A stretch of 64,000 nt of DNA from a virus (IMGVR_UViG_3300035670_000069:1-64000); one strand, 5' to 3'. Positions 81 through 56,425 are shown, numbered from the stretch's first letter. Notes: a model not told the origin generated them from the letters alone. A program made the numbers and translations.

Positions 81-800
81 ATGGCAGTTTCTAAATCTAT
101 GGACTTTCCTGGCAAAAAGAAAAACTATGCATCTCAGGTTGTACAATCACAACAAACAACAGTTGATCAATCTGCAACATACATACCAGTTCCAGGGCCA
201 CAAGGCCCACAGGGACCTCAAGGACCACAAGGGGTACCAGGACCAAGGGGAGATAAAGGAAAAGACGGGGAGAGAGGCCCAAAAGGCGAAAGAGGCACAC
301 CTGGTAAAGATGGTCTAAGTTCTTTATCATCTTCTGGACAACAGGCTGGCTGGGGAGCATACTATAACTCAAACAAAAAATCTATCAGACTTGGAATTGA
401 TAAAGGCGACGAGGGATGGGTAAATATTTGGGTAGATTCAAATCCTAAAAATGAAAAATTTTTGCCAAAAGAAGCAACCAGCCTTTGGAATGAAAACCAA
501 AGAATGCTTAATTTTCATGGTATTAACATAGGCTCTCAAATATTTGTTACATATAACTTTGAACTTACTACATATAATAATAATACAGAGGTTTGGATTA
601 GAACATTTTTTCCTAAATCTGCCATCGATATTTCTCAGCATGTAGGATCATTAAAATATCAATATACCTACAATATGAACGTTACTCAGCACTTCTTCAT
701 AGAAAATGAAGATATGTGGAAAAATGGTGCGGTACCTCAAATCAGAACAGACTATGATGCAGATGTAATAATCAATTCTATACACGTATCTGTGATATAA
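81..800 (+). CDS. Collagen-like (G-X-Y) virion fibre/minor structural protein
   Basis: 13 consecutive G-X-Y triplets (GPQGPQGPQGPQGVPGPRGDK...) at about 195-311, followed by a beta-rich C-terminal domain. Confidence 0.75.
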   Translation: MAVSKSMDFPGKKKNYASQVVQSQQTTVDQSATYIPVPGPQGPQGPQGPQGVPGPRGDKGKDGERGPKGERGTPGKDGLSSLSSSGQQAGWGAYYNSNKKSIRLGIDKGDEGWVNIWVDSNPKNEKFLPKEATSLWNENQRMLNFHGINIGSQIFVTYNFELTTYNNNTEVWIRTFFPKSAIDISQHVGSLKYQYTYNMNVTQHFFIENEDMWKNGAVPQIRTDYDADVIINSIHVSVI

Positions 801-816
801 TTTACACGGAGGAATT

Positions 817-1233
817 ATGGCATTTCCAGGAACATTAAATATTTCGTATTACAAGGGTGACACCTATGAATTTCGTATATACCCTAAAACAGCAGATGGA
901 GATGTTTTTGATTTAACTCCATATGTAGGCGGAGATTATGATGATGATAACGATCCAGGAACTCCAGTTGTAGATGCCGACGCTGTCGTGTTTTCTTTTT
1001 CAGAAACTAGAGGAGAGCCAGATCCTCATAAATGTTTTGCTGAAATTTCAGATGATAAGACATACATAACTTGTGTAATCAGACCAGAAGACTCTCAGTA
1101 TTTAGATGCTGGAACAACATATGTTTACGATGTTCAAATTTTTAAACCAGCAGGTGATGGAATAACATATCCAACAATACATACATTGCTTACTGGTAAT
1201 ATAACTGTTACTGGGCAGGTATCTCAGTGGTAG
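817..1233 (+). CDS. Putative structural protein, BppU-N-like adaptor; paralog of 8036..8449
   Basis: YKGDTYEFRIY...YVYDVQI...LLTGNITV pattern; GGAGG RBS; tail-fibre context. Confidence 0.5.
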   Translation: MAFPGTLNISYYKGDTYEFRIYPKTADGDVFDLTPYVGGDYDDDNDPGTPVVDADAVVFSFSETRGEPDPHKCFAEISDDKTYITCVIRPEDSQYLDAGTTYVYDVQIFKPAGDGITYPTIHTLLTGNITVTGQVSQW

Positions 1234-1799
1234 ATGTAATTTTATCTAGTGATGACTTAGTTGTTCTTGGTGGGCCAGAATCTGTTAATGTTGAAGTAGA
1301 TTTCGGACCACAAGGTGATCGTGGAAGTTTAATTTTTGTGGGTAATGGAAAGCCAGATCTAGTTGATATTGGACAAACTCCAAATGTATTTGATCTTTAT
1401 ATAAATTTGCTTACAACCGATGATGAATATTTAATGATGTATCAATATGTTGAGGTATTAGGAACATTACAATGGCAAACTCTAACTAAATTAATTCCCA
1501 ATACATATGTTACAAATCAGAATATTGATTTTGATACCGCCAACTATTGCCATATTCCTATTGCATCAATAGTAGATCCATCTTATGTAGGAAGCACTGA
1601 TGCTTCTAACTTTAGTGTTCAGGTAACTTTTGGAACATCTGCAGGGTATCCAATTGTAAGTTCAATTAAAACAGAAGTAGTTACTCTTAGCAGTATTGAA
1701 AATTTAAAAATAACATTCTATGCCAAGGAATTTGATGGTACTAACTGGATCGATATAAGCGGTTCTAGAACAGCCAACCTTCATATTTCGGTGGTATAA
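1227..1799 (+). CDS. Hypothetical virion structural protein
   Basis: 190-aa ORF overlapping the upstream stop; short GPQGDRG motif. Confidence 0.55.
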   Translation: MVDVILSSDDLVVLGGPESVNVEVDFGPQGDRGSLIFVGNGKPDLVDIGQTPNVFDLYINLLTTDDEYLMMYQYVEVLGTLQWQTLTKLIPNTYVTNQNIDFDTANYCHIPIASIVDPSYVGSTDASNFSVQVTFGTSAGYPIVSSIKTEVVTLSSIENLKITFYAKEFDGTNWIDISGSRTANLHISVV

Positions 1800-1816
1800 T
1801 CAAAGGGGTGATGTAA

Positions 1817-2458
1817 GTGGCAGTTGAAGACATTGGTAGTTTATGGAATACCAAGCAGCCAGGATATGAAGATGCTGCAGATATTCAGGCAGCCCTAAAA
1901 GCATTCCTTTACGGTAGTTACGATTATGACCAAACAAATACAGACCCAACACAACTTCCAAACCCATCTCTTGCAAAACACCTACAGGGTTTAGACGACA
2001 GGATTACAGATCAAGAAACATTAGGAATAGGATCTGACTATCTTACCCTTTCAGAAATTGCAGCAATAGTATCCCCAGAAGACGGATATATTGCTATGGC
2101 ATCTGACTCTAATGGCGGAGCAGTTGAATCTTTATATGCCTCCGCATTTTACACAAATGAAGCCCCAACAACAGACATTGTAGATGGAGTTCTTTGGGTA
2201 GATAAAGATTCTGAAGCATTAGATACATATGTTTATGATGCAACAGACGAAGAATGGGTAAGAATTAATGATCTTAAGAATGTCATTCAGGCAAAGGGTG
2301 ATATACTTATCGGCAGTTCTGCAAGCAATATAGACAATTTGGCGATTGGTTCAAATGGAACTGTATTGACAGCAGATGACACTCAGCCACTTGGAGTCAA
2401 ATGGCAACAAGTAGATACTGAGTCTATTATAATTTCATCCGTGATGGGTGCGTATTAG
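1817..2458 (+). CDS. Minor tail/fibre protein
   Basis: APT..DGVLWVD and AKGDILIG...LAIGSNGTVLTAD..QPLGVKW segments typical of phage fibres. Confidence 0.6.
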   Translation: MAVEDIGSLWNTKQPGYEDAADIQAALKAFLYGSYDYDQTNTDPTQLPNPSLAKHLQGLDDRITDQETLGIGSDYLTLSEIAAIVSPEDGYIAMASDSNGGAVESLYASAFYTNEAPTTDIVDGVLWVDKDSEALDTYVYDATDEEWVRINDLKNVIQAKGDILIGSSASNIDNLAIGSNGTVLTADDTQPLGVKWQQVDTESIIISSVMGAY

Positions 2459-2466
2459 GAGGAGAT

Positions 2467-2769
2467 ATGGCTACTACACCAAAATTAATGTATCGTGGAG
2501 CAGCAGCACTTACTGACACAACACTTTACACTGTGCCAGCAGATACAACTGCTATCGTAACAGATATTGTTGTGACAAACACTGACTCTACAGCAGCAAC
2601 ATTTACTATAAAGTTTGATACTGTAGAAGTTCTTTCTGGCGCTACCCTCGCTGCAAACAGTACTGCTACTTTTGAATTAAAGCAGGTACTAGAAGCAGCC
2701 GATGTAGTTTCTGGACTAGCATCTGCAACTACTGTTAAACTTCATATAAGCGGAGTTGAGATTGCATGA
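2467..2769 (+). CDS. Small beta-sandwich structural/fibre-associated protein
   Basis: TTLYTVPA.TTAIV..IVVTN...HISGVEI pattern; AGGAGG RBS. Confidence 0.55.
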   Translation: MATTPKLMYRGAAALTDTTLYTVPADTTAIVTDIVVTNTDSTAATFTIKFDTVEVLSGATLAANSTATFELKQVLEAADVVSGLASATTVKLHISGVEIA

Positions 2770-3284
2770 GTTATTCTGTATACCCTCCAGAAGAACAGGC
2801 ATCTGCAGTAACAGATAATTGGCAATTAATTGCTTCTAGTACACCAACTACTGGAACTACCGTTACATTTTCTGGAATAGCAACTGATTGGCGTAAACTT
2901 TGGATTTTGACACACGATCCAGTTTCTTTAAGTACTGGGGGAAATACATATATTCGTACAAACACTTTGAGCAATCCAACAGACTATGCATGGCTTGGTC
3001 CTAGTGGAACCAGTTCATTTAGATATAATGATGAAACTGGAATTTATAATTATACTGCAGCAACAGGCGCTAGTGCTATTTTTAATGTTTATATAACAAA
3101 CCCTTCTTCATCATTACCATTTGCAACTTTTGAAGGTGCGGGTTCTGCAGGTACTGGAGGAGATTCTTATCAACGAGGATGGATTAAAAATTTAACTTCA
3201 CCAGTTACACAAATTGATATTATAACAACAACTGGGTATAACGCAAGTAATACTGGTTCATTTAAGTTATATGGGAGCCTATAA
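2766..3284 (+). CDS. Putative tail-fibre tip/receptor-binding protein
   Basis: WQLIAS...VTFSGI...ITQIDI...GSFKLYG layout typical of fibre-tip domains; ATGA-coupled to the upstream gene. Confidence 0.5.
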   Translation: MSYSVYPPEEQASAVTDNWQLIASSTPTTGTTVTFSGIATDWRKLWILTHDPVSLSTGGNTYIRTNTLSNPTDYAWLGPSGTSSFRYNDETGIYNYTAATGASAIFNVYITNPSSSLPFATFEGAGSAGTGGDSYQRGWIKNLTSPVTQIDIITTTGYNASNTGSFKLYGSL

Positions 3285-3286
3285 AT

Positions 3287-3910
3287 ATGTCAACAGTTAG
3301 TTCAACCAGTAAAGTAGCATACATGTATGACCAAGCGTCAGATACTTGGTATGCTGTTGCTGGTACGGCTAACACAAATGTTGCATATACTTGGAATGCT
3401 GCTCACACTTTTGGATCTATCGTAACTGTTAATGATGTTATTAGAGCAAAAGGTGGAGTAAATAGATTTCAAAACCCTACCGCCAGAGATACAGTAATTC
3501 CTTCTCCAGTTAAGGGTACTGTATGTTTTGTTGAGCAAACAGACGGCGGTACTGATATAAACCAAGTTCAAATTTATAATGGTACATCATGGGTAGGAAT
3601 GTTAGATACAACTACTCTTAATAATCAGACATCTGACTATACCCTGGTTTTGGGGGATGCTGGAAAAACAATTACAGTTGATTCTACAATAGATAGAACA
3701 ATTACTATTCCAAGCAATGCTTCTGTACCCTTCGCAATTGGACAAAGACTTGATATTATTCGTATGAACACTGGCAACGTAACTATTGGCGGTACACCAA
3801 CTATTCTTAGTAAAAATTCTAACAAGAAAATTGCTGCGAGGTATTCTGGAGCAACTCTTATCAAAACTGATACAGATACCTGGGTACTTATTGGCGATTT
3901 GACGGCGTAG
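3287..3910 (+). CDS. Tail fibre/adaptor protein
   Basis: C-terminal ~100 aa (NNQTSDYTLVLGD...IPSNASVPFAIG...KTDTDTWVLIGDLTA) is homologous to the C-terminus of 11414..13015. Confidence 0.65.
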   Translation: MSTVSSTSKVAYMYDQASDTWYAVAGTANTNVAYTWNAAHTFGSIVTVNDVIRAKGGVNRFQNPTARDTVIPSPVKGTVCFVEQTDGGTDINQVQIYNGTSWVGMLDTTTLNNQTSDYTLVLGDAGKTITVDSTIDRTITIPSNASVPFAIGQRLDIIRMNTGNVTIGGTPTILSKNSNKKIAARYSGATLIKTDTDTWVLIGDLTA

Positions 3911-3918
3911 GTGATCCC

Positions 3919-5466
3919 ATGCTTGGATGGCTTGGAAAATGGGCGGGATCCAAAGGAATGGGAAAAATCCCAGACCTTGAAGGCTTATCTAGAGCAGATG
4001 CAAGAAACGCAATTATAAATGCTGGATTTAGTTTAGGTAATGAAACTGTAAGAGGAAATAGTCAGGGAGCAACATCTTCTAATAATGGTAAGGCTAAGGG
4101 AAGAGTTGATACAAACGAATTACTTGATTACGAATCTCAGATAGATTTTGAATACTACTCTTGGGTTGATGAACAAAATACTCAAAATACTCAAAATACT
4201 CAGAACACAGTAAACACTGTAAATACTGTTGATACCGTAAACACTGTAAATACTGTTAATACAGTAAACACCGTAAACACTGTTGACACAGTACCAACAT
4301 GTCAATATAGTTATGGAGAATGGACATCGTTAGGTACAAGAGTAGAACAGACTTGCAATGGATCCATGCTAACTGTTACAAGCGGTCAAGCAGAGGCAAG
4401 ATTTTTGGTTGATTCTGGAAATAATCTTGTTTTATTCCCACCAGAGGGATGCGGTCCTGCAGTTGAGACTAGATGGATAGGTACTCCAGAAACTACCACA
4501 ACGGAAGATTGTTATTACTGTACATGTGAGGTTGATACAGTTAATACAGTAAACACGGTTGATACCGTTGATACAGTAACCACTGTTAACACTGTTAACA
4601 CTGTTAACACTGTAGATTCTGGCCCTGGATATTGTAGATCAGAAGTTAAGCAGGATGGAATTGGTGCATGTAGTTCTGGACTTGCAACTTATACAGTTTG
4701 TTATTCTAATTCAGACTTTACTGGAAGTGTAACTTATTCAGAATGGACTGAATGCTATGAGTCAGGTGTAAATACACAAAATACAGTTAATACTGTTAAT
4801 ACAGTTAATACTGTTAATACAGTTGATACTGTTAATACAGTTGATACTGTTAATACAGTTGATACAGTAAATACTGTTGTTAATATTCAAGATACCGTTG
4901 ATACTGTTAATACGGTAAACACAGTTGACACAGTTAATACAGTAAATACTCCATGCGGACAAGAATGGTATAACTTTACTGGAAATCTTACAGAATGCTG
5001 TGGTTTGGGAGAAAGAGATCAATTAATAGATTGTAATGGAGTAGTTCTTGAAACTGTTATTAGTTGTATTGATACATGTCAAAATACACAAAATACTCAA
5101 AACACCCAAAACACTCAAAACACCCAAAATACAGTTGATACTCAAAACACCCAAAATACAGTTGATACTCAAAACACCCAAAATACAGTTGATACTCAAA
5201 ACACCCAAAACACCCAAAATACCCAAAATACAGTTGATACTCAAAACACCCAAAATACAGTTGATACTCAAAACACCCAAAACACCCAAAATACAGTTGA
5301 TACTTTTGTTAATATTCAGGATACAGTTGATACCCAAAACACACAAAATACAGTTGATACTGTAGATACTCAAAATACAGTTGATACTCAAAATACCCAA
5401 AATACTCCATGCGATTCTTGTTGTCAGATAGGCTGTGTCACCGTTGGATCGAATTGTGCCTGTTAG
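3919..5466 (+). CDS. PASTA-domain protein with [N/D]T[V/Q] tripeptide repeats and Cys-rich modules (putative adhesin)
   Basis: IPDLEGLSRADARNAIINAGFSLG matches the start of a PASTA domain; four repeat blocks alternate with modules of 6, 4, 6 and 6 Cys. Confidence 0.7.
   Translation: MLGWLGKWAGSKGMGKIPDLEGLSRADARNAIINAGFSLGNETVRGNSQGATSSNNGKAKGRVDTNELLDYESQIDFEYYSWVDEQNTQNTQNTQNTVNTVNTVDTVNTVNTVNTVNTVNTVDTVPTCQYSYGEWTSLGTRVEQTCNGSMLTVTSGQAEARFLVDSGNNLVLFPPEGCGPAVETRWIGTPETTTTEDCYYCTCEVDTVNTVNTVDTVDTVTTVNTVNTVNTVDSGPGYCRSEVKQDGIGACSSGLATYTVCYSNSDFTGSVTYSEWTECYESGVNTQNTVNTVNTVNTVNTVDTVNTVDTVNTVDTVNTVVNIQDTVDTVNTVNTVDTVNTVNTPCGQEWYNFTGNLTECCGLGERDQLIDCNGVVLETVISCIDTCQNTQNTQNTQNTQNTQNTVDTQNTQNTVDTQNTQNTVDTQNTQNTQNTQNTVDTQNTQNTVDTQNTQNTQNTVDTFVNIQDTVDTQNTQNTVDTVDTQNTVDTQNTQNTPCDSCCQIGCVTVGSNCAC
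4177..5406 (+). repeat. 9-bp-unit coding tandem repeats in four blocks (4177-4293, 4534-4614, 4771-4950, 5083-5406)
   Basis: aatacagtt/gatactcaa/aacacccaa units; the 27-mer aatacagttgatactcaaaacacccaa is repeated perfectly from 5128. Confidence 0.95.
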
Positions 5467-5493
5467 TATGATATACTTAAATAAGGAGAAAAA

Positions 5494-5691
5494 ATGATAA
5501 CTTTTGCAATTATTGTAGATAATGAGGTTGCTTCAACGCTTGTTATTACTGATGAAAATGAATCTTTGGACCAAACACAAAGACTTGCTGCTGCCCTTAG
5601 ATCAGACTTTACTATATTAGAAACAGAAAACCATAATGTTAAGCCTGGTTGGACCTGGGATGGAACTAATTTTGTAGAACCTTTGGAGTAG
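5494..5691 (+). CDS. Small fibre-associated protein
   Basis: FAIIVDNEV...PGWTWDGTNF motif common next to tail fibres; AAGGAG RBS. Confidence 0.6.
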   Translation: MITFAIIVDNEVASTLVITDENESLDQTQRLAAALRSDFTILETENHNVKPGWTWDGTNFVEPLE

Positions 5692-5694
5692 TTT

Positions 5695-6222
5695 GTGTCT
5701 GAAGAACTATCTGCTTGGCAAAAATATAAACTTCAACAAAAACAATCTATAAGTAAAAGCATTATAACTGGATATACAAAACTAGTTTATGGAACAAAAA
5801 TATTAATGGCTGATGGTACTTATAAAAAAGTTGAAGATATCTATATTGGAGATTCTATAAAAACTTTATCTATTAAAGATGCAGATTTTCCTTTTACTTT
5901 TCAACAATTAGGAGATTTTAATTTTTCTTCTTCAAAAGTTTATAATACAGTTCATAAAAAAGAAACCTTTACTCATAATATTTATAATCAATATTTTACA
6001 AGCACGTCTACCCTGCTGACTTTAAGGGATAGTCATCTAATTAAAGTTTTTGCATCTGATATTAAGTTACATGATAAAGTTTTAAACAATGAGGCAGATT
6101 TTGTTTCTATAGAAAAAATAGTTACAAATAATTTAAACATAGATTCAGTATCTTTAGATATTTATCCAGATAAAATATTTTTTACAGAACATCTTGCTAT
6201 TTTTTGTGAGGGTATAAAATGA
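5695..6222 (+). CDS. Stand-alone degenerate Hint (intein-like) domain protein
   Basis: LVYGTKILMADGTYKKVEDIYIGD (block A-like) and LDIYPDKIFFTE (block F/G-like); the catalytic C/S1, block-B His and terminal HN are missing. Confidence 0.65.
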   Translation: MSEELSAWQKYKLQQKQSISKSIITGYTKLVYGTKILMADGTYKKVEDIYIGDSIKTLSIKDADFPFTFQQLGDFNFSSSKVYNTVHKKETFTHNIYNQYFTSTSTLLTLRDSHLIKVFASDIKLHDKVLNNEADFVSIEKIVTNNLNIDSVSLDIYPDKIFFTEHLAIFCEGIK

Positions 6223-6821
6223 ATAAAAAAATACTAGACGACAGAATAGTAGAATATACAGGATTACTAAACAATCCAGATAAAATAATTAATGATATAT
6301 ATGATGTATGCAAAAAATATAGTTTAAAATTTGCAGAAAGTACAATTAATAATTATCAAATAGACAAAGACAAAGTGTCATCTACAGCCTTCTGGTTACA
6401 TGCTTCTCCAAAAGATATAGAAATTTCAACAACATTTCCAAATGAAAAATTTGAAATAAATTCTTATATAGATAAAGAAGTTTCTGAAGCAGTTTTTGAT
6501 TATATTGATAATTACGATGTTAAAATAAAGCAAAAAGAAAGATGGGGTATGGTTAGATATGAGAAAGATCAGTTTATTACTTGGCATCAAGATGGACCAG
6601 ATCCAAAAGATAACCCTAATGGAAGAAAACTTTCTTTTGTTTTATATTTAAATGATAATTATGAAAATGGTGGAATTCAGTTTAGAGATTATATTGGAGG
6701 AGAGGAATATAAACCAACTGCTGGGAGTTTATTAATATTCCCCTCCTACCCTCAATATTCACATAGAGTTATTCCTGTGAGTTCTGGAACAAAATATGTC
6801 AATATTTCTTTTGCTATTTAG
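6219..6821 (+). CDS. 2OG-Fe(II) oxygenase, prolyl-4-hydroxylase-like
   Basis: WHQD...RKLSFVLYLNDNYENGGIQF...GSLLIFPS..YSHRVIPVSSGTKY (HxD...H...K). Confidence 0.9.
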   Translation: MNKKILDDRIVEYTGLLNNPDKIINDIYDVCKKYSLKFAESTINNYQIDKDKVSSTAFWLHASPKDIEISTTFPNEKFEINSYIDKEVSEAVFDYIDNYDVKIKQKERWGMVRYEKDQFITWHQDGPDPKDNPNGRKLSFVLYLNDNYENGGIQFRDYIGGEEYKPTAGSLLIFPSYPQYSHRVIPVSSGTKYVNISFAI

Positions 6822-7396
6822 TTAGGAAATTTTTCTAACCACTCCCTAGTTCTAGGGGTAATTCCTTTCCAAGAACTCCAGTTTTCTCCTCCTTGAGACA
6901 TATGAAATGCAATTTCTGCATTAACAACTGGATTAAACAAGTCTGCATTGTGATCTAGGTCATATTTTTTACGACGATCAGGACCAAGCATTCCAATCAT
7001 ATTAATTTGAAAAATACCATACGAACTGTCTCCAGTTCTGGAATTTCCATTGAATGCAAATGGCCTACCATTACTTTCTTTTTTAGCAATAGCCCATGCC
7101 TCCTTGAGACTTTGTCCCTTAAAGCCCACTAACCTAAGTAATTCTTTAAGGTCCTTATCAGATAGAGATGTAGCGTTTTCATATTTTTCTAACTGATCTT
7201 CTTTAGCCTTAGAAACGACTTCGGCCACTTCCGTGGCCTTTAGTGATTCCTCAAGCAGGACAACAACCTGTTCAGGCTGTTTAGTGTCCTCTAATCGGTT
7301 TTCAGAAGCATTGGCAATATTTGAGTAAACCCCAAACATAGCCAATATGCTGAGTGTACCAATGATGTTCCTATTATTATTCATAAAGTTAATCAT
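6818..7396 (-). CDS. Secreted lytic transglycosylase/lysozyme-like (SLT fold) protein
   Basis: AIAKKESNG (catalytic Glu), SYGIFQIN, LFNPVVNA, NWSSW; hydrophobic N-terminus ending A-N-A. Start moved to 7396 on the basis of an AAGGAGGA RBS. Confidence 0.85.
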   Translation of the reverse strand: MINFMNNNRNIIGTLSILAMFGVYSNIANASENRLEDTKQPEQVVVLLEESLKATEVAEVVSKAKEDQLEKYENATSLSDKDLKELLRLVGFKGQSLKEAWAIAKKESNGRPFAFNGNSRTGDSSYGIFQINMIGMLGPDRRKKYDLDHNADLFNPVVNAEIAFHMSQGGENWSSWKGITPRTREWLEKFPN

Positions 7397-7450
7397 AGTT
7401 TCCTCCTTAGAAACGAAAAACACCTTGTTTAAGGGTGTTTAACATTTCTT

Positions 7451-7493
7451 AGTATAACACAATTTGGGAAGGATAGTCAAATAGTGATATAAT
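7451..7493. promoter_or_regulatory. Divergent sigma70-type promoters
   Basis: Minus strand: TTGACT (7475-80), 18 bp, then TGTTATACT. Plus strand: TGATATAAT (7485-93), 8 nt before ATG 7502. Confidence 0.7.
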
Positions 7494-7501
7494 TATTTTC
7501 T

Positions 7502-8017
7502 ATGGCTGAGATAACTAATAATTATGGTTTAACATATCCAGAATCAACAGATTCTGTTAATGTACATAATGATATTAAAAAATTAGCAGATGATGTTGAT
7601 GATGCTATTTCTTCTCTTGATGCCTCAAATGTGAGGGTAAAAGTAATTAATAATTCAGGATCAAGTATAGGTGCAGCAAAACCAGTATATGCTGTAGGAC
7701 ATACAAATAATAAAACACAAATAGAATTATTTACATCAGATTTATCAGATAATTATCCAATTCTTGGTTTGACAAAAACATCATTAGATGATGGAGATAG
7801 TGGAGAAGTTGTTGTTGCTGGCGTTTTAACAAATGTAAATACAAGTAGTTTTTCTGTAGGAGAATTATTATATGTGGATGCTTATGGTGCCCTTACAACT
7901 ACCGTCACAGGTGGCGCAATAGGAATTGTTGCAGTGGCAGACGCATCAACTGGAGTAATTGTTATTCAGGCAAAGGGTAACGGCACTTGGGGAGCACTCA
8001 AGGCTGGCCTTGCTTAA
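7502..8017 (+). CDS. Minor structural protein (fibre/capsid-cement-like)
   Basis: TNNYGLTYPE.TDSVNVH.DIKKLA N-terminal anchor; GEVVVAGVLTNVNTSSFSVGELLYV domain. Confidence 0.55.
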   Translation: MAEITNNYGLTYPESTDSVNVHNDIKKLADDVDDAISSLDASNVRVKVINNSGSSIGAAKPVYAVGHTNNKTQIELFTSDLSDNYPILGLTKTSLDDGDSGEVVVAGVLTNVNTSSFSVGELLYVDAYGALTTTVTGGAIGIVAVADASTGVIVIQAKGNGTWGALKAGLA

Positions 8018-8035
8018 TTATGGTATAATCACATT

Positions 8036-8449
8036 ATGGCAACAGCAAGAAATCTGTCTCAGGGAAAATATAATGTTGGAAATACTCCACCAGTAATTGT
8101 TTGGACTGTTGTTCGTGGAGACACAGCATCCTTTAGAGTATATGCAACAGATGATGCAAGAGAGCCATTAAACATTCCAGATTATACAATTACAATGGAA
8201 ATTAAAAGACCAAATGCAGAGGCTGATCTTGGACTAGGAACAGATGCTGCCACAATTATATTAACCTTAAACCCAGAACCAGATTCAGATGATGAGGCTG
8301 GAGAGTTTACTGTCTCATTAACAGCAGAACAATCTGCCCAACTTGAAACGGGAGATATTTTCGATATTGAACTTCGAAGCGCAGGAAACGCCCTTGTTTG
8401 GACGGTAGCGCAAGGAAGCATGAAAATAATTGAAGATATTACACTTTAA
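8036..8449 (+). CDS. Putative structural adaptor; paralog of 817..1233
   Basis: VVRGDTASFRVY...FDIEL...VWTVAQGSM pattern. Confidence 0.5.
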   Translation: MATARNLSQGKYNVGNTPPVIVWTVVRGDTASFRVYATDDAREPLNIPDYTITMEIKRPNAEADLGLGTDAATIILTLNPEPDSDDEAGEFTVSLTAEQSAQLETGDIFDIELRSAGNALVWTVAQGSMKIIEDITL

Positions 8450-8670
8450 TGGCAAGTGTAAAAATAGTAGAGAAAAAGAAAAAGAATCTTAAAGCAATTA
8501 ATGCAATCTCATATGCAATTATAAATGTTTCGCATAATACAAGGACGGTAAAGATAGAAGAAGTATTACCGTTTAGAGTTAAGTTTACAAATATAGGTAT
8601 ACCAAATCTAATTTCTTCTGCCCCTGGAATTGGCGTTGCAGTTATTGGATTTAATAACTATATCCTGTAA
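8449..8670 (+). CDS. Hypothetical protein
   Basis: TAATG-coupled; ends PGIGVAVIGFNNYIL. Confidence 0.55.
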   Translation: MASVKIVEKKKKNLKAINAISYAIINVSHNTRTVKIEEVLPFRVKFTNIGIPNLISSAPGIGVAVIGFNNYIL

Positions 8671-8701
8671 AAAAATATAAAAAAGGAGTTATAATAACGA
8701 C

Positions 8702-9148
8702 ATGGCCAAAATATCAATTGCTGCAGTAAAAAGCAAATTTCAGACGGGTGATCGTCCTTCTCAAGAAGACTATGAAGATTTAATTGATACCCTTGCAGGT
8801 GCGGGTAATGATCTAGGAACAACAGGTAATAACGAAAATACAATTTCAGGGATTGAAAATGTTACAGTAATTGATAACTTTGATGCAACTGAATGGCGTA
8901 TGGTTAAATATCTTGTTTCTATAGCAAAGACTACAAATGGCGATAATAAATTTTATGCAACAGAATTGACCATATTGGTGGACGGTTCAAATGTGAACGT
9001 TTCAGAATATGGCACAATAGACAACGATGGGAATATTGGCACCATTAGTGTCTCTAGGACAGGAGATACAGTTGCTTTAACTGTTACTCCAGATCCAGTA
9101 ATTAAGCCAGTCACAGTTCGTTATGCACGAATTGGACTTAAGGCATAA
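8702..9148 (+). CDS. Virion structural protein
   Basis: KSKFQTGDRPSQEDYEDLIDT N-terminus; the C-domain resembles the C-terminus of 9163..10866. Confidence 0.6.
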   Translation: MAKISIAAVKSKFQTGDRPSQEDYEDLIDTLAGAGNDLGTTGNNENTISGIENVTVIDNFDATEWRMVKYLVSIAKTTNGDNKFYATELTILVDGSNVNVSEYGTIDNDGNIGTISVSRTGDTVALTVTPDPVIKPVTVRYARIGLKA

Positions 9149-9162
9149 AAGGAGATAAATAA

Positions 9163-10866
9163 ATGGCAACAGTAACAAAAGACTTTAAGGTAAAGAATGG
9201 TCTTATTGTTGAAGGCACAACAGGTACCATCGACGGACAAGACATTCTTACTAAGAAGCAAGATGACCAAAACTATATTATTGGTCTTATTGGCGGTTCT
9301 TCAGATTCCGCTAACACACCAAACACAGTCGTAAAGCGTGATGCTAATGGCGACTTTGCTGCGGGAGTAATAACAGCAGACCTAACTGGTGATGTAACTG
9401 GTAATGCAGATACAGCAACAGCACTTGAGACTGCTCGTACAATTTCTTTGGCTGGAGATGTAACAGGTTCTGTATCTTTTGATGGTACAGCAAATATAAG
9501 CATTACAGCAACAATCGATGGCTCTTTTGCAACAGATGCAGAAGTTGCTACAGCAAAGTCTGAAGCAATTGCAGATGCAGAAGATTATACAGATGGCCGT
9601 GAGACTGCTATCACAACTGCTTATCAGGCTTATGCTGATCAAGCAGAGACAGATGCAGTTGCATCTGCTGGTTCTTACACAGATGCTCGTGAAATTGCAA
9701 TTACCTCAGCATATGAGGCTTATGCAGATCAGGCTGAAGTAGATGCTAAGGCATATACAGATACTCGTGAAACCGCAATTACTTCTGCTTACCAAGCATA
9801 TGCTGACCAAGCAGAAACAGATGCTATTGCTTCTGCTAATTCTTACACAGATACAGCAGTTGCAAACCTTGTAGATTCTGCTCCAGCAACTCTTGATACC
9901 CTCAACGAGTTGGCAGCAGCACTTCAGGACAATCCAGACATTATTGGTGACCTTCAGACAATTGCTGCAGGAAAGCAAGATACATTAACTGCTGGTGCAA
10001 ACATTGACATTACAGGTGCAACAATATCTGTAACAGGTTTGACATCTGCAGAAATCTCTGACTTTGATGCACAGGCAGTAACAGCAAACACAGGTCTATG
10101 GGATGCTTCAGGTTCAGCATCAGCAGCACAGGCTGCAGCAGAATCTTATGCAGATGGCCTTGCTGTTAATTATGATGCAGCAGGTTCTGCTTCAGCAGCC
10201 CAAGCAGCAGCAATCGCAGCAGCAGAATCATATGCTGATGGTCTTGATGGAGCAACAAATACTCGTATTGATAACCTAACAACAACAGATGTTGCTGAGG
10301 GTACAAACCAGTATTACACAACTGCTCGTGCTCAAGGTGATGCAGCATCACTACTTACAGGTGCTACATTAACAAACATTCAGATCACTGGTGACGGAAA
10401 TGGTCTTACAATTACCGCAGAAAATGGTGTTGCAGACTCTGATACAGATGATCTTGTTGAAGGCTCAACAAACCTTTACTTCACAGATGCTCGTGCAGTA
10501 TCTGCTCTTGAAGCAGTAGTTCCAAACTTTGAAGCAGTAGAAATTGACTCACTTGCAAAGCAGGTAGCAGCAACAGTTTCTGTCCCAACTGCCTCAACAG
10601 TTACAGGATTCTCATGGGCAGCAGCAGACTACAGAACTGCAAAGTTCTTGGTTAAGACTGCTTATGGAACACACACAGATGTAGCAGAAGTTCTTTTGAC
10701 TCTTGATACATCAGATAATATTGCTATCACAGAATACGCAATGGTAGGCACAAATGGGTCTGCTATGACAATTTCTGCAGATGTTTCTGCTGGAGATGTC
10801 CGTCTTCGTGTAGCAACCGTCAACAATAACTCAACAGTTACTGTTGTAGGTACACTTTTAGCATAA
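9163..10866 (+). CDS. Long tail fibre protein
   Basis: DFKVKNGL N-terminus, GNADTATALETARTISLAGDVTGSVSFDG, three YTD.RE.AIT.AY.AYADQAE repeats, LVDSAPATLDTLNELAAAL, EGSTNLYFT. Confidence 0.8.
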   Translation: MATVTKDFKVKNGLIVEGTTGTIDGQDILTKKQDDQNYIIGLIGGSSDSANTPNTVVKRDANGDFAAGVITADLTGDVTGNADTATALETARTISLAGDVTGSVSFDGTANISITATIDGSFATDAEVATAKSEAIADAEDYTDGRETAITTAYQAYADQAETDAVASAGSYTDAREIAITSAYEAYADQAEVDAKAYTDTRETAITSAYQAYADQAETDAIASANSYTDTAVANLVDSAPATLDTLNELAAALQDNPDIIGDLQTIAAGKQDTLTAGANIDITGATISVTGLTSAEISDFDAQAVTANTGLWDASGSASAAQAAAESYADGLAVNYDAAGSASAAQAAAIAAAESYADGLDGATNTRIDNLTTTDVAEGTNQYYTTARAQGDAASLLTGATLTNIQITGDGNGLTITAENGVADSDTDDLVEGSTNLYFTDARAVSALEAVVPNFEAVEIDSLAKQVAATVSVPTASTVTGFSWAAADYRTAKFLVKTAYGTHTDVAEVLLTLDTSDNIAITEYAMVGTNGSAMTISADVSAGDVRLRVATVNNNSTVTVVGTLLA

Positions 10867-10896
10867 CAAAATAAATAAAAGAGGGAGTGGTAGATC

Positions 10897-11352
10897 TTGG
10901 CAACAGTAGATAAAGATTTCAAGGTCAAAAATGGGCTAGTCGTCACTAATGGCGGTAGTTTCGGAGGATCTGTAGTTGTAGGAGAACCTACACTTGACAC
11001 GCATGCTGCTACTAAGGCCTATGTGGATTCACTAGCAAGCGGTATGGTTGTTGGATCTACCGCTCCCGAATCACCAGAAAATGGAGATTTATGGTTTGAT
11101 ACATTGACAGAAAGAGTTAATGTATATTATGGTGGCTCATGGCTTACCATAGCGTCAATTGATGACACCCTAACATTACGGGATCACATTCATGATACTT
11201 CAATTGATGGAAATGGACTAATAGTTTCTACCTTCATAAGTGGAGGTAGTTTTAATGACCCACAAGGAACGCCAGTAGATGGCGGTACTGCAACAACCTC
11301 ATCATGGGAAAATACTTATGATGGCGGGGTAGCAACAGATAACTTCAACTAA
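10897..11352 (+). CDS. Short fibre protein
   Basis: Same MATV.KDFKVKNGL start as the upstream gene; HAATKAYVD; P.NGDLWFD. Confidence 0.7.
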   Translation: MATVDKDFKVKNGLVVTNGGSFGGSVVVGEPTLDTHAATKAYVDSLASGMVVGSTAPESPENGDLWFDTLTERVNVYYGGSWLTIASIDDTLTLRDHIHDTSIDGNGLIVSTFISGGSFNDPQGTPVDGGTATTSSWENTYDGGVATDNFN

Positions 11353-11413
11353 AAATTGATGTTATAATTAGATCGAAAAACTGGTAGAAATACCATAAGG
11401 AGAGAATAAAAAT

Positions 11414-13015
11414 ATGGCAACAAGAATGCAACAGCGCAGAGGGACTGCAGCACAATGGACAGATGCAGATCCAATTTTAGCAGCAGGAGAAATCGGATTT
11501 GAGACCGACACTGGTAAATTTAAGATTGGTAATGGTACCTCTGAATGGTCTGCTCTCTCCTACTTTACAGACTCACAAGATTTTGATACAACAGATTTTG
11601 TTTTAAATGCACAAAAAGGAATTGCTAATGGTGTGGCAACACTAAATGGTAACGGGCATGTTCCCATTAGCCAATTAGGCGCACTTATTGATAATGCACC
11701 AGAAGCATTAAACACATTAAATGAATTGGCGACAGCAATAACTGATTTAGAAACAAGTCTTACAGCACAAATAACATCACAAATAGACACTAATATTACG
11801 GCTCATAGACAAGATACTACAGATGTTCATGGAATTGCAGATACATCAGAACTTGCCACACAAGGATATGTTGATACTACATCAAGTAATGCGGTAAGCA
11901 CACATAATGATTTAACAACAAACGTTCATGGTATTGACGATACGACAGATCTTGCAACACAAACCTACGTAGGCACTTCAATATCTACTTCCATAACTAC
12001 ACATAATGAGTTAACTGAAAATGTACATGGTATAGCAAACACAGGCCTATTAGCAACTTCAGATGATGTTTCTACTTCAGTAACTGCACATAATGACACG
12101 ACATCAAATGTACATGGTATAGCAGATACAACACAACTAGAAACAACAAGTGGCGCACAAGACAAAGCAAACGCAGCACAGGCTGCAGCAGAAGCAACAG
12201 CATCGTCAGACGCTACAACTAAAGCAAACGCAGCACAGACTGCAGCAGAAGCAACAGCAAGCACTGCTTTAGATAACCACAATTTAGATACAACAAACGT
12301 ACATGGTATTGCAGATACAGCAGACCTTGTTCTTACAAATGATGCTCGTTTGTCTGACGAAAGAACACCACTTGATTCTTCTGTAACAGATGCAAAGATC
12401 AATGGAACTCTTTCTCAGTCATCAATTACAAATCTTACAACAGATCTTGCTGCAAAGGCTCCTCTTGAGTCCCCAGCATTAACTGGAACACCAACTGCTC
12501 CAACAGCAACTGCTGGAGATAATAGCACTCAAGTTGCTACAACAGCATATGTTGATTCAGCAGTTACAGCACTTGTTGATTCAGCACCAGGAGCACTAGA
12601 CACTCTTAATGAGTTGGCTGCTGCGCTTGGAGATGACGCAAACTTCTCAACAACTGTTACAAACAGCCTTGCTTTGAAGTTAGAACAGTCAGATCTTGAT
12701 AGTGCAACATATTACACATTTAATGCTCAAACAGCAAGTTATACTCTTGCATTAACAGATTCAACAAATATGGTTACAGTAAATTCTGGTTCAGGAACAA
12801 CAGTAACAGTTCCACCAAATTCTTCAGTAGCCTTCCCAATCGGAACATATATTGATATTTTCCAATTAGGTGCGGGACAAGTAACAATCGCAGAAGGTTC
12901 TGGAGTTACAATTTATGCAACACCAGGAAAGAAACTTCGTACACAATACTCAGGTGGATCTCTTGTTAAAAGAGATACAGATACCTGGTATTTGACAGGC
13001 GATATCGTAGCATAA
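11414..13015 (+). CDS. Tail fibre with Mtd-N/hyaluronidase-like shoulder domain
   Basis: RMQQRRGTAAQW...LAAGEIGFETDTGKFKIGNG; five H-x7-HGI repeats; SPALTGTPTAPT; C-terminal TDTW.L.GD adaptor domain. Confidence 0.85.
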   Translation: MATRMQQRRGTAAQWTDADPILAAGEIGFETDTGKFKIGNGTSEWSALSYFTDSQDFDTTDFVLNAQKGIANGVATLNGNGHVPISQLGALIDNAPEALNTLNELATAITDLETSLTAQITSQIDTNITAHRQDTTDVHGIADTSELATQGYVDTTSSNAVSTHNDLTTNVHGIDDTTDLATQTYVGTSISTSITTHNELTENVHGIANTGLLATSDDVSTSVTAHNDTTSNVHGIADTTQLETTSGAQDKANAAQAAAEATASSDATTKANAAQTAAEATASTALDNHNLDTTNVHGIADTADLVLTNDARLSDERTPLDSSVTDAKINGTLSQSSITNLTTDLAAKAPLESPALTGTPTAPTATAGDNSTQVATTAYVDSAVTALVDSAPGALDTLNELAAALGDDANFSTTVTNSLALKLEQSDLDSATYYTFNAQTASYTLALTDSTNMVTVNSGSGTTVTVPPNSSVAFPIGTYIDIFQLGAGQVTIAEGSGVTIYATPGKKLRTQYSGGSLVKRDTDTWYLTGDIVA

Positions 13016-13044
13016 TTAAATTAAGTTAAAAGGAGAAGATAGAT

Positions 13045-14433
13045 ATGCCAATAAGAGGTAAAGGTGGTAAGGGTAGAGGTGGACGTTCTAAAACACGTCG
13101 TGAAGGAACAGTTCCAGGAGTACCAACTGGCGTAACTGCCACAGATGTTGGAACAAACCGTCCATATAATAACGGTGCAGTAACTGTAACATTTACAGCA
13201 GCATCAGACGGATCAACTCCAGCAACATCTTATACAGCATCAGGATTCTGTAGCGTACATAATACAACACATACAGTAACTGGGGCATCTTCTCCATTAA
13301 CTATAACTGGCTTTGGCTCTGGTGTATCAACAACGATTACCGTAAAGGCAAACAACCAATACGGCTCATCTGCTGATTCTTCACCATCTTCATCTGTTAC
13401 CGTAACAACTGTACCAGCCACACCTTCTGCACCTTCCGCATCTTCTCCTTCAGCAGGAACAGATAGCGTATCATGGTCAGCGCCAGCAAACGGTGGTAAG
13501 GCTATTACAAATTATTACTGGACATCATCAGATAGTAAGAGTGGAAATACAACATCTACATCTGTAAGCGTTGCTCAAGAACAGGGAACTGCTCAAACAT
13601 ATAATGTTCGTGCAGATAATGCTAACGGTTCTTCTGGAACGTCAGCAAACTCGGGATCTGTTACTACAACATTTTCTTTTACTCCGTTTAGCGTGTTCTC
13701 GTTCTCACCATTCGGCGTGTTCTCGTTCTCACCATTCGGTGTGTTCTCGTTCTCACCATTTGGTTTCTCACCATTCGGCGTGTTCTCGTTCTCACCATTC
13801 GGTGTGTTCTCGTTCTCACCATTTGGTTTCTCACCATTCAGTTTCTCACCATTTGGTTTCTCACCATTTGGTTTCTCACCATTCAGTTTCTCACCATTTG
13901 GTTTTTCACCATTTGGTTTCTCACCATTCGCTCCACTCTTTGGACCAAGAATTTATTCATTGTCTCCACATACAAAAGTAAGAATGGCTGATGGAACCTT
14001 AAAAGAGGCACAAGATATTGTTTTAGGAGATGAACTAATGTCTGTGATTCTTCCAGGACTTGGTGATGTATTTACAACAGAAAGTCTTGCTGCATGGTCT
14101 ACATCCGAAGATATTTCAGATTTAAATACTGTTTCAACAACTGTAAATAGAATCAAAACTCATACATCTGAGACTCTTCATATAATTAATGGAGATTCTT
14201 TCTCTCCTAGCCACCTTGTTTTAGTAAAAACAGATAATGATGTTTCTATGAAAAAAGTTTCTGACATTGTAGAAACAGATTTCGTTTGGTCTCAAGGGCA
14301 GTGGAATGAAATTACTACATTAGAAGTAATAGAATATCAAAATAATGTTATTAATATTAACTGCGAACCATATGATATTTTCTTTACAGAAAATGCCCTA
14401 ACCCACGATGGCGCCGAATACTATAACAATTAA
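13045..14433 (+). CDS. FN3-domain protein with FSPF repeat tract and C-terminal Hint (intein-like) domain
   Basis: Two FN3-like units (VPGVPTGVTAT...; VSWSAPANGGKAITNY...YNVRADNANG), 13 FSPF copies, then SLSPHTKVRMADG...SPSH...NCEPYDIFFTENALTHD. Confidence 0.8.
   Translation: MPIRGKGGKGRGGRSKTRREGTVPGVPTGVTATDVGTNRPYNNGAVTVTFTAASDGSTPATSYTASGFCSVHNTTHTVTGASSPLTITGFGSGVSTTITVKANNQYGSSADSSPSSSVTVTTVPATPSAPSASSPSAGTDSVSWSAPANGGKAITNYYWTSSDSKSGNTTSTSVSVAQEQGTAQTYNVRADNANGSSGTSANSGSVTTTFSFTPFSVFSFSPFGVFSFSPFGVFSFSPFGFSPFGVFSFSPFGVFSFSPFGFSPFSFSPFGFSPFGFSPFSFSPFGFSPFGFSPFAPLFGPRIYSLSPHTKVRMADGTLKEAQDIVLGDELMSVILPGLGDVFTTESLAAWSTSEDISDLNTVSTTVNRIKTHTSETLHIINGDSFSPSHLVLVKTDNDVSMKKVSDIVETDFVWSQGQWNEITTLEVIEYQNNVININCEPYDIFFTENALTHDGAEYYNN
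13672..13929 (+). repeat. 15/24-bp coding tandem repeat (FSPFG / VFSFSPFG)
   Basis: The ttctcaccatt core recurs; one FTPF plus 13 FSPF in 86 aa. Confidence 0.95.
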
Positions 14434-14446
14434 TAAATAGGAAAAT

Positions 14447-14478
14447 AGCCCCCTATAGCAGGGGGCTTTTTCTTTTTT
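14447..14478 (+). terminator. Intrinsic terminator
   Basis: AGCCCCCT-atagc-AGGGGGCT stem followed by a T-rich run. Confidence 0.85.
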
Positions 14479-14507
14479 GTGGTATACTTAATAAAGATAG
14501 GAGAATT

Positions 14508-15164
14508 ATGGATTATAACAATATACCCAAAAGCGTTAGTAAATCTACCAAACCTCATAAATTTTTTGAAAGAACTTTGAACAATAATTTAAATATTTTG
14601 TCATCTGAACTACATGATAGATATGAAAAAATAGAACAGGCAAAATTAATTGGAGTTACTCCTGTGGGCGAAGATGAACTATGGAAGTCTTCAAATAGCG
14701 TTTCTACTATGAAATGGAGACAGTATAATGTTTTTCAATTTCATTCAGTTGGAATATATGATTTATTCAAATCTGTACGAGAAATGACTGTTGAAGCCTG
14801 TGATTATTATAATTTAGATTTTGAAAAACAAAAATATATGATACAAGGATGGTTTAATATTAATTATTCAAAAAGGGGAAAGTTAGATTGGCATGATCAT
14901 GGCCCCCACGGCGCTCCTAATTTTCATGGGTATTATTGTGTAAAAGCAGAACCATCTATAACTTATTATAAAGTATTTGATAAAGATATAGAAAATCATA
15001 ATATAAATAATCGTGCAATTCTTTCAGAAATGGGACATCCCCATGCACAGGCTGACTGGGATTGGGATGGTCCAAGAATTACTATTGCATACGACATTAT
15101 CCCATTGAGAGATTTGTTAATGCATGCCAAAGATCAAGAACAGCATTGGATACCACTGGCATGA
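14508..15164 (+). CDS. Putative 2OG-Fe(II) oxygenase (HxH type, TIGR02466-like)
   Basis: GWFNIN...WHDHG...FHGYYCV...GHPH...RITIAYDI. Confidence 0.7.
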   Translation: MDYNNIPKSVSKSTKPHKFFERTLNNNLNILSSELHDRYEKIEQAKLIGVTPVGEDELWKSSNSVSTMKWRQYNVFQFHSVGIYDLFKSVREMTVEACDYYNLDFEKQKYMIQGWFNINYSKRGKLDWHDHGPHGAPNFHGYYCVKAEPSITYYKVFDKDIENHNINNRAILSEMGHPHAQADWDWDGPRITIAYDIIPLRDLLMHAKDQEQHWIPLA

Positions 15165-15805
15165 TAGCAATGAAACCACCTCATAAATTTTTTGAAAGAT
15201 ATTTAGACAATAATTTAGATGAACTTTATAATTATTTAGAAGATCAACTAGATTTATTGATTTCTGGAAAATTGGTAGAAATTGATTCTGAAATTTTGTC
15301 AAAATTTAATAAATACAATGGTGCACCAACTCAACTAGGCATGCACTATAATATTTTTAATTTTGAAAATAAATTTATAAAAAATTTACAAAATGCATTA
15401 AGAGATGCGGTAAAAGAAGCATGCGAGTATTATGGTCACGATTATGAATCAATGAAATATATGATACATGGTTGGTATAACTATGATCCAAAAACTATGG
15501 ATGGTTCTTCTGGAGTCAACCCACTAAAAAATGATAAATTTTATCACGATCATATGGGCGGAGAAGGCGCCCCAGTTTATCATGGTTATTATTGTGTAAA
15601 TGCAGAGCCATCAATAACATACTATAAAATAAATAACGAAATTGATTTTGAAAATCATAATAAAAATAATCGAGCAATAGTTTCTGAAACTGGACATCCC
15701 CACGGAAGAGATGATTGGTATCAAGATAAGCCAAGAATTACTATTGCCTACGATATTATTCCAACATCTCACTATACGTTTGATAGTTTATGGATTGATT
15801 TATGA
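15161..15805 (+). CDS. Putative 2OG-Fe(II) oxygenase; paralog of 14508..15164
   Basis: PHKFFER.L.NNL, YHDH, YHGYYCVNAEPSITYYK, GHPH, RITIAYDII. Start placed at the ATGA overlap (15161). Confidence 0.7.
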   Translation: MIAMKPPHKFFERYLDNNLDELYNYLEDQLDLLISGKLVEIDSEILSKFNKYNGAPTQLGMHYNIFNFENKFIKNLQNALRDAVKEACEYYGHDYESMKYMIHGWYNYDPKTMDGSSGVNPLKNDKFYHDHMGGEGAPVYHGYYCVNAEPSITYYKINNEIDFENHNKNNRAIVSETGHPHGRDDWYQDKPRITIAYDIIPTSHYTFDSLWIDL

Positions 15806-56142: not shown

Positions 56143-56425
56143 AAGTAAAAGATTAGGTGCTAGTCAGCATAAAAACTCTGGAAGAAATACCAAAAAGGGT
56201 GATGCTACTTGGCAAAACTTTACTGTAGATTTTAAAGAAGTCAAAAAATCATTTACCATTAATCAAGACATATGGGCAAAAGCAGTTACTGATGCAATTA
56301 AAAATAATAATGATCCAGCAGTAGTTTTAATTATTGGGGAGGGTAACAAAAAAATTAGACTTGCACTTTTAGAATTAGACTTATTAGAAAATATTTTGGG
56401 GTATAATAATGTATATGATAAATAA
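56126..56425 (+). CDS. PD-(D/E)xK Holliday-junction-resolvase-like nuclease
   Basis: E...LG...HKNSG...KGD...VDFKE..KSFTI. Confidence 0.7.
   Translation: MSEKSESKRLGASQHKNSGRNTKKGDATWQNFTVDFKEVKKSFTINQDIWAKAVTDAIKNNNDPAVVLIIGEGNKKIRLALLELDLLENILGYNNVYDK

Follow-up and report, generated by a model that had tools for sequence, protein, structure and literature searches.

Among phage fibres, C-terminal domains that cleave themselves are a familiar theme: intramolecular chaperone domains of the Peptidase_S74 type reside at the C-termini of phage tailspikes and fibres, e.g., in K1F endosialidase and T5 pb1. In many phages, the fibre genes are followed by chaperone genes, and viral collagen with prolyl hydroxylases is represented by the P4H of PBCV-1 and by mimivirus L230. 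Conjugation by the BIL domains of BUBL belongs to established chemistry. Likewise established are the acyl shift at the +1 residue of the Hint domain with subsequent resolution of the ester and the addition of cholesterol in Hedgehog proteins (PMC7765530). The A-type and B-type BIL domains were described by Amitai et al. (2003; summarized in PMC7765530). Here, these systems are compared with a region (positions 3287–15805) of a 64,000-nucleotide stretch of viral DNA, referred to below as the window, which makes up the first 64 kb of the 108,556-bp IMG/VR contig IMGVR_UViG_3300035670_000069, rated as complete by CheckV. The region harbors two loci, A and B, with genes for tail fibres, repeat-bearing adhesin-like proteins, Hint domains, and 2OG-Fe(II) oxygenases.

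The reading we prefer, with a probability of roughly 0.6 for the explanation as a whole, is that the region represents the host-recognition module of a ca. 109-kb freshwater phage of Actinobacteria and is built of two paralogous units, each comprising a fibre gene and an adhesin gene. The adhesin of locus B would end in a self-cleaving Hint domain, the Hint function of locus A would have been lost, and the oxygenases would be real enzymes uncoupled from both units, belonging to a separately transcribed variable island that starts at the end of the fibre module. The original prediction, made from the nucleotide sequence, took the region for a twice-repeated cassette in which fibre, repeat protein, Hint domain, and oxygenase(s) constitute a single system. 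All the open reading frames (ORFs) it named are present, and the repetition holds for two genes, the fibre and then the adhesin, but not for the oxygenases as a shared part. The features of the region are the following:

3287..3910, + strand: fibA, a short fibre of 207 amino acids (aa) matching PHROG tail and minor tail protein families
about 3614–3907, + strand: fibC domain of fibA, the conserved last ~100 aa
3919..5466, + strand: repA, a Hint-less adhesin-like protein comprising PASTA (at the N-terminus), Cys modules, [N/D]T[V/Q] triplet repeats in four blocks, and a tail rich in Cys
5469..5477, + strand: extended -10-like motif TGATATACT(TAA) before the unit of the small ORF at 5494, hintA, and oxyA; consensus match only
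5494..5691, + strand: small ORF of 65 aa, the first gene past the promoter-like motif, with a weak match to PHROG 14370
5695..6222, + strand: hintA, a stand-alone Hint-like protein, paralogue of the repB Hint
6219..6821, + strand: oxyA, a 2OG-Fe(II) oxygenase of a P4H-type Pfam family
11414..13015, + strand: fibB, a tail fibre of 533 aa with an Mtd_N N-terminus (E 8.7e-15), matching many PHROG tail-fibre families
about 12716–13012, + strand: fibC domain at the C-terminal end of fibB
13045..13671, + strand: N-terminal part of repB, with a basic N-peptide and FN3 domains
13672..13956, + strand: FSPFG aromatic repeat tract of repB and a short linker, ending ...GPRIY (-1 residue)
13957..14433, + strand: Hint/BIL domain of repB, residues 305–462, with Ser305 at +1, SPSH in block B, Asp in block F, and His-Asp followed by 7 residues
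14447..14478, + strand: strong intrinsic-terminator-like hairpin (14447–14467; 8–9 bp stem, 6 GC) and T-run directly after the repB stop
14480..14488, + strand: extended -10-like motif TGGTATACT(TAA) before oxyB1; consensus match only
14508..15164, + strand: oxyB1, a double-stranded beta-helix with the 2OG-oxygenase fold, without Pfam match
15161..15805, + strand: oxyB2, paralogue of oxyB1

The constant part of the module is the pair formed by the fibre gene and the gene directly downstream of it. The C-termini of fibA and fibB are paralogous, as had been expected (44% identity over 99 aa, E 3e-22), and this shared end, fibC, also terminates "minor tail proteins" in 251 records of cultured phages, mostly Gordonia phages, where the fibC-ending protein likewise has another gene directly 3′. 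In PhiJL001 (L113), fibC ends gp87, and the next protein, gp88, carries three LamG lectin domains. In Gordonia phage Nubi (L112), fibC is a stand-alone 118-aa "minor tail protein" (gp36/gp37 pair), after which a 198-aa protein is encoded. Among the related viral contigs, gathered with oxyB1 as a seed (23 loci) and with the Ser-type Hint as a seed (211 IMG/VR relatives, 78 loci fetched; loci are designated by L numbers), 27 non-redundant fibC-to-adhesin pairs were found, 24 of them with Hint. A fibC fibre occupies position -1 for 21 of the 36 non-redundant Hint genes and occurs almost nowhere else in those loci. A related-locus search seeded with the repB Hint alone found nothing.

The second gene of the pair starts 8–30 nt after the fibre gene, within the same transcription unit, and in all 27 pairs its product combines a basic N-peptide (MAxxKKxGKKS..NDFL or MxxxxxGxRGIRKVxVPNL), binding domains, and a low-complexity tract. 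The head is of the FN3 or PASTA type (LamG-like in L012), and the tracts are built of FSPFG, FTPFG, FFPP, GAF, GFSHY, TP, and other repeats. Close relatives interchange PASTA, FN3, and LamG heads, repeat types, and Cys-type, Ser-type, or absent Hint domains, so the suggestion that these are modular, swappable units is borne out. Both loci of the window are instances of this module: a short fibre with a PASTA-type adhesin at A and a long fibre with an FN3-type adhesin at B. The predicted repeat tracts are likewise real and near-perfect in the underlying DNA, with tandem repeats of 9/27 nt in repA and of 15/24/63 nt (90–100% matches) in the repB tract. In two of the loci, L042 and L048 (records G007 and G008), two Hint-ended adhesin genes are situated ~4 kb apart; one of the adhesins (914–944 aa) continues past the Hint for ~35 aa and ends with ...QEWKLSQENPPA.

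In the proteins of the region, the Pfam thresholds were passed only by the 6219 product (2OG-FeII_Oxy_3) and the Mtd_N end of fibB; PASTA and Hint scored sub-threshold, and FN3 and the 14508 and 15161 products gave no match at all. Both adhesin heads were recovered with profiles: that of the PASTA-type N-termini matches the PknB PASTA (E 3e-11), and that of 20 homologues of the repB head matches the FnIII domains of titin, fibronectin, and chitinase (E down to 8e-28). Taken with the gene order, this domain content leads us to infer that fibC, i.e., the last ~100 residues of the first gene product, may be the docking site for an exchangeable adhesin encoded downstream. The latter would comprise the basic N-peptide, exchangeable binding domains, the low-complexity tract, and, ancestrally, a C-terminal Hint/BIL autoprocessing domain. 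The fibC profile found no relative among the solved structures, and the predicted complex of three fibC copies with the repB N-terminus scored 0.03, which counts neither way.

The Hint fold of the repB C-terminus is supported by its AlphaFold2 model (pLDDT 89), which matches BIL and intein structures: the best Foldseek match in PDB is the Tetrahymena BUBL BIL2 domain (6y75, E 4e-8), along with the Ssp DnaB intein (1mi8), the C. thermocellum BIL domain (2lwy), and Hedgehog (1at0). The domain possesses the +1 nucleophile (Ser305) and the block B S-P-S-H that the Hint superfamily requires. A profile search of 1.84 billion representatives returned 383 relatives; in the full-length matches, the Hint typically lies within 20 residues of the C-terminus (105 of 119, median 7), usually after low-complexity sequence, and Pfam detects fn3 (18), PASTA (17), and several Hint families across 89 family members. 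The catalytic columns compared in 111 members show Ser (51) or Cys (43) at +1 and a block-B His kept in 109. Two classes stand out, namely Cys1 / His / His-Asn, with 40 members, and Ser1 / His / [His, Phe or Tyr]-Asp, with about 45 members including repB; close relatives with the same N-terminal parts may carry the other class or none. The Ser-type Hint has 211 relatives in IMG/VR vs. a single match in 185,579 prokaryote genomes (on a 10-kb contig of a metagenome-assembled genome), and this near absence from prokaryotes marks the Ser-type clade as a phage clade.

The site of the putative cleavage is indicated by relatives devoid of Hint. Two of them, L012 and L015, end with ...FTPGRGARIY*, and the junction in the window reads ...GPRIY|SLSPHTKV; the coincidence of these RIY ends with the RIY preceding Ser305 is the reason to take the bond before Ser305 as the cut site and the end of the mature protein. 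Such a natural deletion series appears to be the strongest available evidence for cleavage at Tyr304/Ser305. The reaction would start with an N-to-O acyl shift at Ser305, aided by the block-B His and the block-F Asp; resolution of the ester would then free the mature adhesin ending ...GPRIY, and the 158-aa Hint would be discarded. Hence, release via the Hint domain, as anticipated in the original prediction, is probable at locus B, with its intact residues and the RIY ends of Hint-less relatives, but not at locus A, where the domain is dead and encoded by a separate ORF.

With the described BIL domains, the phage domain shares the Hint fold of mini-intein size without endonuclease, the residence in hypervariable, non-conserved surface-type proteins, the N-terminal Cys/Ser, and the block-B His. 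One phage subclass ends with His-Asn (A-type-like), and the other is without the canonical C-terminal motif (B-type-like), a likeness drawn from the end residues; autocleavage rather than splicing would be expected for both. Unlike these BIL domains, the phage domain is situated at the extreme C-terminus, its genes directly follow tail-fibre genes, and hardly any members of the Ser...[H/F/Y]-Asp subclass come from outside viral contigs. Like Hog of Hedgehog (1at0 being among the structural matches), it is a C-terminal Hint that would cut at its own N-terminus and free a functional N-terminal protein; in contrast to Hog, it has no sterol-recognition region, Ser takes the place of the nucleophilic Cys, and relatives without Hint occur. 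An intein is not indicated, given the His-Asp-Gly end with 7 residues after it and the hypervariable host protein, nor is a polymorphic toxin of the PT-HINT type: no toxin domain follows the Hint, and the PT-HINT Pfam matches in 13 relatives reflect the shared fold. The logic of repB would resemble that of the self-cleaving S74 chaperone domains of other phage fibres, where the C-terminal domain of a host-recognition protein removes itself after serving, but with BIL chemistry: fold and mechanism are unrelated (Ser-Lys dyad protease vs. Hint acyl shift). No Peptidase_S74 match was obtained with Pfam among the scanned proteins of the region.

The predicted paralogy of the two Hint regions is evident from the alignment of hintA with the C-terminus of the 13045 product (29% over 146 aa, E 6e-7). 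Still, where the family displays S/C, H, D, and H-N/D, hintA has Lys at +1, Ser in block B, Lys in block F, and a Phe-Cys end, and it is the only one of the 111 members compared that deviates at all four catalytic positions. A word-indexed search of 5.8 billion proteins with hintA retrieved its own cluster only. In the locus-A orthologue L111, one ORF of 398 aa comes after a fibA-like gene and encodes PASTA, Cys modules, TP repeats, and, fused to them, an intact Cys1...HNK Hint, which shows that the Hint of locus A in the window has been split off and inactivated. Judging by its residues, hintA is catalytically dead and would be a relic or a re-purposed protein. RepA now ends with its Cys-rich tail, as does the L016 adhesin. 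L111 also encodes a DUF6171 Cys-rich small protein (218-475, - strand), whose gene separates the fused Hint adhesin from the oxyA-like gene; the counterpart of this slot in the window holds the unrelated 65-aa ORF, which lies upstream of hintA.

The oxygenases named in the original prediction have genuine 2OG-oxygenase folds. OxyA belongs to PF13640 (2OG-FeII_Oxy_3; E 8.6e-14, 52.7 bits vs. the cut-off of 27), its translation displays H-Q-D and a later His, and it has seven paralogues elsewhere in the genome. OxyB1 and oxyB2 (14508 and 15161) are paralogous to each other, as predicted (48% identity, E 7e-57), and the AlphaFold2 model of oxyB1 (pLDDT 93) matches 2OG-oxygenase folds, the top Foldseek matches being 3bvc, 2rg4, bacterial P4H 4iw3, PHD2, and FtmOx1, with TM about 0.55–0.65. 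Their nearly invariant residues are W-H-D-H ... G-H-P-H ... R, i.e., H-D-H, not HxD; in metagenomes, oxyB1 is represented by 1102 clusters. Both loci thus end in oxygenase(s), as the architecture deduced earlier implies, but the families differ (oxyA vs. oxyB, E 6e-4 only). At least 10 oxygenase genes (at least eight of the PF13640 type and two of the oxyB type) are scattered over the 108 kb, which makes their adjacency to the module less improbable than it looks. Five tandem paralogues at 56409-59735, with 23–32% mutual identity, were not counted as oxygenases: they match neither Pfam nor the oxygenase profiles.

The slot from the adhesin to the gene of the ribonucleotide reductase (RNR) is a variable island in the relatives: it contains 0–5 oxygenases and at times an Asp/Asn hydroxylase, a sulfotransferase-like or GNAT-like gene, or unknowns. 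For instance, between the adhesin and oxyB genes of L003 (5343-6077) and L018 (7221-7829) lie genes for a sulfotransferase-like protein and for an Asp/Asn beta-hydroxylase (PF05118, E 2e-12). In the clade with Pro-free GAF repeats (L096, 8484-10149; L056, L081, L089, L098, L100), the slot is devoid of oxygenases and contains genes for proteins of 169 aa (weakly GNAT-like), 137 aa, and 237 aa (DUF6065-like). A family of 237–249 aa frequently encoded between adhesin and RNR showed no relation to oxyB in hhalign and no relative in PDB, and its DUF6065 matches are weak. In the cultured phages with the fibC module, lysis genes reside in that slot, and no oxygenase is encoded nearby. A collagen-like tail-fibre protein with GPQ, GVP, and GTP triplets is encoded at 81-800 of the window and would be an equally plausible substrate for P4H-like oxygenases. 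The co-occurrence of P4H-like 2OG oxygenases with Pro-rich repetitive structural proteins of the same virus (e.g., 81-800) resembles the viral P4H systems; the difference is that here there are at least 10 oxygenases of at least two families, most of them not beside structural genes.

The transcription signals expected after the repeat genes are present as extended -10 motifs, TGnTATACT at 5469 and 14480 (consensus match only). The terminator-like hairpin and the new promoter-like motif situated between repB and oxyB1 suggest that oxyB1 would be transcribed separately from repB. The TGnTATACTTAA motif subtype is found at 5469, 14480, 15981 (RNR), and 47669 and stands ahead of the hintA/oxyA unit, oxyB1, RNR, and a fourth gene, respectively; about 20 other genes, those of the fibres included, have TGnTATAAT instead. 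The two motif subtypes may correspond to two promoter classes.

Several observations weigh against the reading of two fibre–adhesin units with uncoupled oxygenases. The terminal residue of the repB Hint is Asp, not Asn, and the penultimate His is Phe/Tyr in many relatives, so its C-terminal chemistry is atypical. The putative place of the adhesin in the virion, docked on fibC, is suggested by the order of the genes and by the domains that they encode. The stop codon of hintA overlaps the ATG of oxyA (ATGA), and the promoter-like motif is common to both, so hintA could have retained a function together with oxyA. Oxygenases follow Hint genes at +1 in 8 of 38 and at +2 in 18 of 34 cases, against a background of 15%; upstream of Hint genes, the count is 0/179. 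Finally, Pro-containing repeats have oxygenases nearby in 23 of 28 cases, and Pro-free repeats are without them in 11 of 14 (23/5 vs. 3/11; odds ratio 17, p = 4e-4).

The ATGA overlap, the enrichment of oxygenases at +1 to +5 after Hint genes, and the raw counts for Pro repeats vs. Pro-free GAF repeats are also the main arguments for the rival explanation inherited from the original prediction, which sees a single processing-and-tailoring system in the fibre, the repeat protein, the Hint, and the oxygenases: P4H-like enzymes would hydroxylate the repeats (Pro in FSPFG or Asn/Asp/Thr in NTV being candidate targets), and the Hint would then release or ligate them. Moreover, both Hint genes of the window precede oxygenases, with a chance of roughly 0.004–0.01 given 10–16 such genes among ~150; a second independent GAF case, L110, has a sister, L094, with FSPFG repeats and oxyB; and the Asp/Asn hydroxylase or sulfotransferase-like gene appears in the same slot of relatives. 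On the tree, however, the GAF group without oxygenases reduces to essentially one clade and the separate case of L110, only four independent contrasts are available, and the sign test gives p = 1, so that the covariation of repeat type with oxygenases stands in the raw counts and is no longer significant after phylogenetic correction. The basal members of the oxygenase-free clade, L035 and L045, have kept Pro repeats without oxygenases; L072, L086, and L093 have oxygenases without Pro repeats; and the Pro-repeat copies in L039, L043, and L048 have no oxygenase among the next five genes. The same oxygenases also follow Hint-less adhesins. With the terminator and the new promoter-like motif ahead of oxyB1, the differing oxygenase families of the two loci, the dead hintA, and the cultured fibC phages without a nearby oxygenase, the claim of tailoring by the adjacent enzymes, which belong to a separate unit and a variable island, was not supported, and the system as a whole is unlikely. 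Its narrower version, hydroxylation of Pro (or Asn/Asp/Thr) repeats by the P4H-like oxygenases with Hint-ester attachment of the modified tract, is quite unlikely; if true, it would mean phage-encoded post-translational tailoring of a host-recognition appendage, in which repeat type and enzyme set co-evolve, Pro repeats going with oxygenases and GAF repeats going without them, some relatives having a GNAT-like gene there. The suggested logic of ribosomally synthesized and post-translationally modified peptides (RiPPs) was not upheld either: the two repeat proteins are multidomain proteins of 462 and 515 aa, and no RiPP-type family appeared in the Pfam scans of the region.

Other explanations concern the fate of the Hint domain and of the protein bearing it. 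Conjugation of the Hedgehog/BUBL kind, with the Tyr304 ester resolved by a non-water nucleophile (a fibre or capsid Lys or a small molecule) and the adhesin thereby tethered covalently by its C-terminus, is suggested by the best structural match, the BUBL BIL2 domain, by the position of the Hint at the extreme C-terminus with an unstructured tract ahead, as in Hedgehog, and by the established conjugation and cholesterol-addition chemistry of the two. It seems a decidedly doubtful option, since fold similarity does not indicate the nucleophile, only 7 residues follow the Hint instead of a sterol- or other adduct-recognition region, and no activated ester can arise in the Hint-less adhesins that share the RIY end (others have a Cys-rich tail instead). 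The Hint domains might also be selfish or neutral BIL-like passengers that spread by recombination at the repetitive tracts, excise themselves without harm, and add nothing to the function of the fibre, with hintA as a decaying copy: BIL domains have been described in hypervariable regions of non-conserved proteins (PMC7765530), hintA is degenerate, and in close relatives sharing the N-terminal parts the Hint may be of the Cys type, of the Ser type, or missing. This is very unlikely; neither a homing endonuclease nor another evident mobility function is present, the abundance of the Ser type in viral contigs, its rarity in prokaryote genomes, and the conserved catalytic residues speak for purifying selection in phages, and the Hint part has the same GC content at third codon positions (GC3) as the remainder of repB, which argues against a recent foreign insert. 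The strict adjacency of each fibre gene to the next gene and the chaperone genes following many phage fibre genes would also fit an assembly chaperone for fibC, discarded after assembly, in place of a virion adhesin. Proteins of 260–940 aa with extracellular binding domains (PASTA, FN3, LamG, CBM, PKD) are, however, unlike the known small fibre chaperones, and this possibility is highly improbable.

The genomic surroundings are those of a phage with nearly all its genes on the + strand. The fibre-like genes (81-13015) and the studied region are followed by a class-II-like RNR (16022), two further oxygenase-like genes, a 1229-aa protein, and lastly portal, protease, and capsid. The sole minus-strand gene within the fibre module (6818-7423), located directly after oxyA, codes for an SLT/lysozyme-like protein with a hydrophobic N-terminus. 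Megablast found no near relative of the contig among cultured phages; at the same time, the capsid protein is ~43% identical to the capsid proteins of large Streptomyces phages, and a WhiB-family gene (PF02467, E 3.5e-12) lies at 83050-83223 of the contig, beyond the window. Together with the PASTA domain, these features point to a probable actinobacterial host. The Hint and oxygenase genes were also considered as a foreign AT-rich island on account of their overall GC (0.25–0.33 vs. 0.38–0.44), and this was rejected because GC3 is alike (0.17–0.21), the difference thus stemming from amino-acid composition; for hintA and oxyA, GC3 is slightly lower (0.10–0.14). The four sequencing runs inspected yielded fragmentary contigs, of which one from an RNA library spans the fibB/repB junction and one from DNA joins 13914 to 14364, both too weak to use.

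Full-text literature searches for Hint/BIL in phage fibres returned only terminase inteins and bacterial BIL or toxin systems, and BIL-type autoprocessing at the C-terminus of modular phage adhesins, with its phage-restricted Ser...Asp subclass, looks undescribed in the searched literature. The module is frequent among freshwater phages with abundant low-GC Actinobacteria as their probable hosts, and, with PASTA, FN3, and LamG as interchangeable heads for receptor binding on one putative docking domain, it amounts to a natural catalogue of such heads. The chemistry of the phage-restricted Ser...Asp Hint clade may serve protein engineering, and the module offers a way to ask if virion proteins are targets of the numerous orphan 2OG oxygenases that aquatic phages encode.

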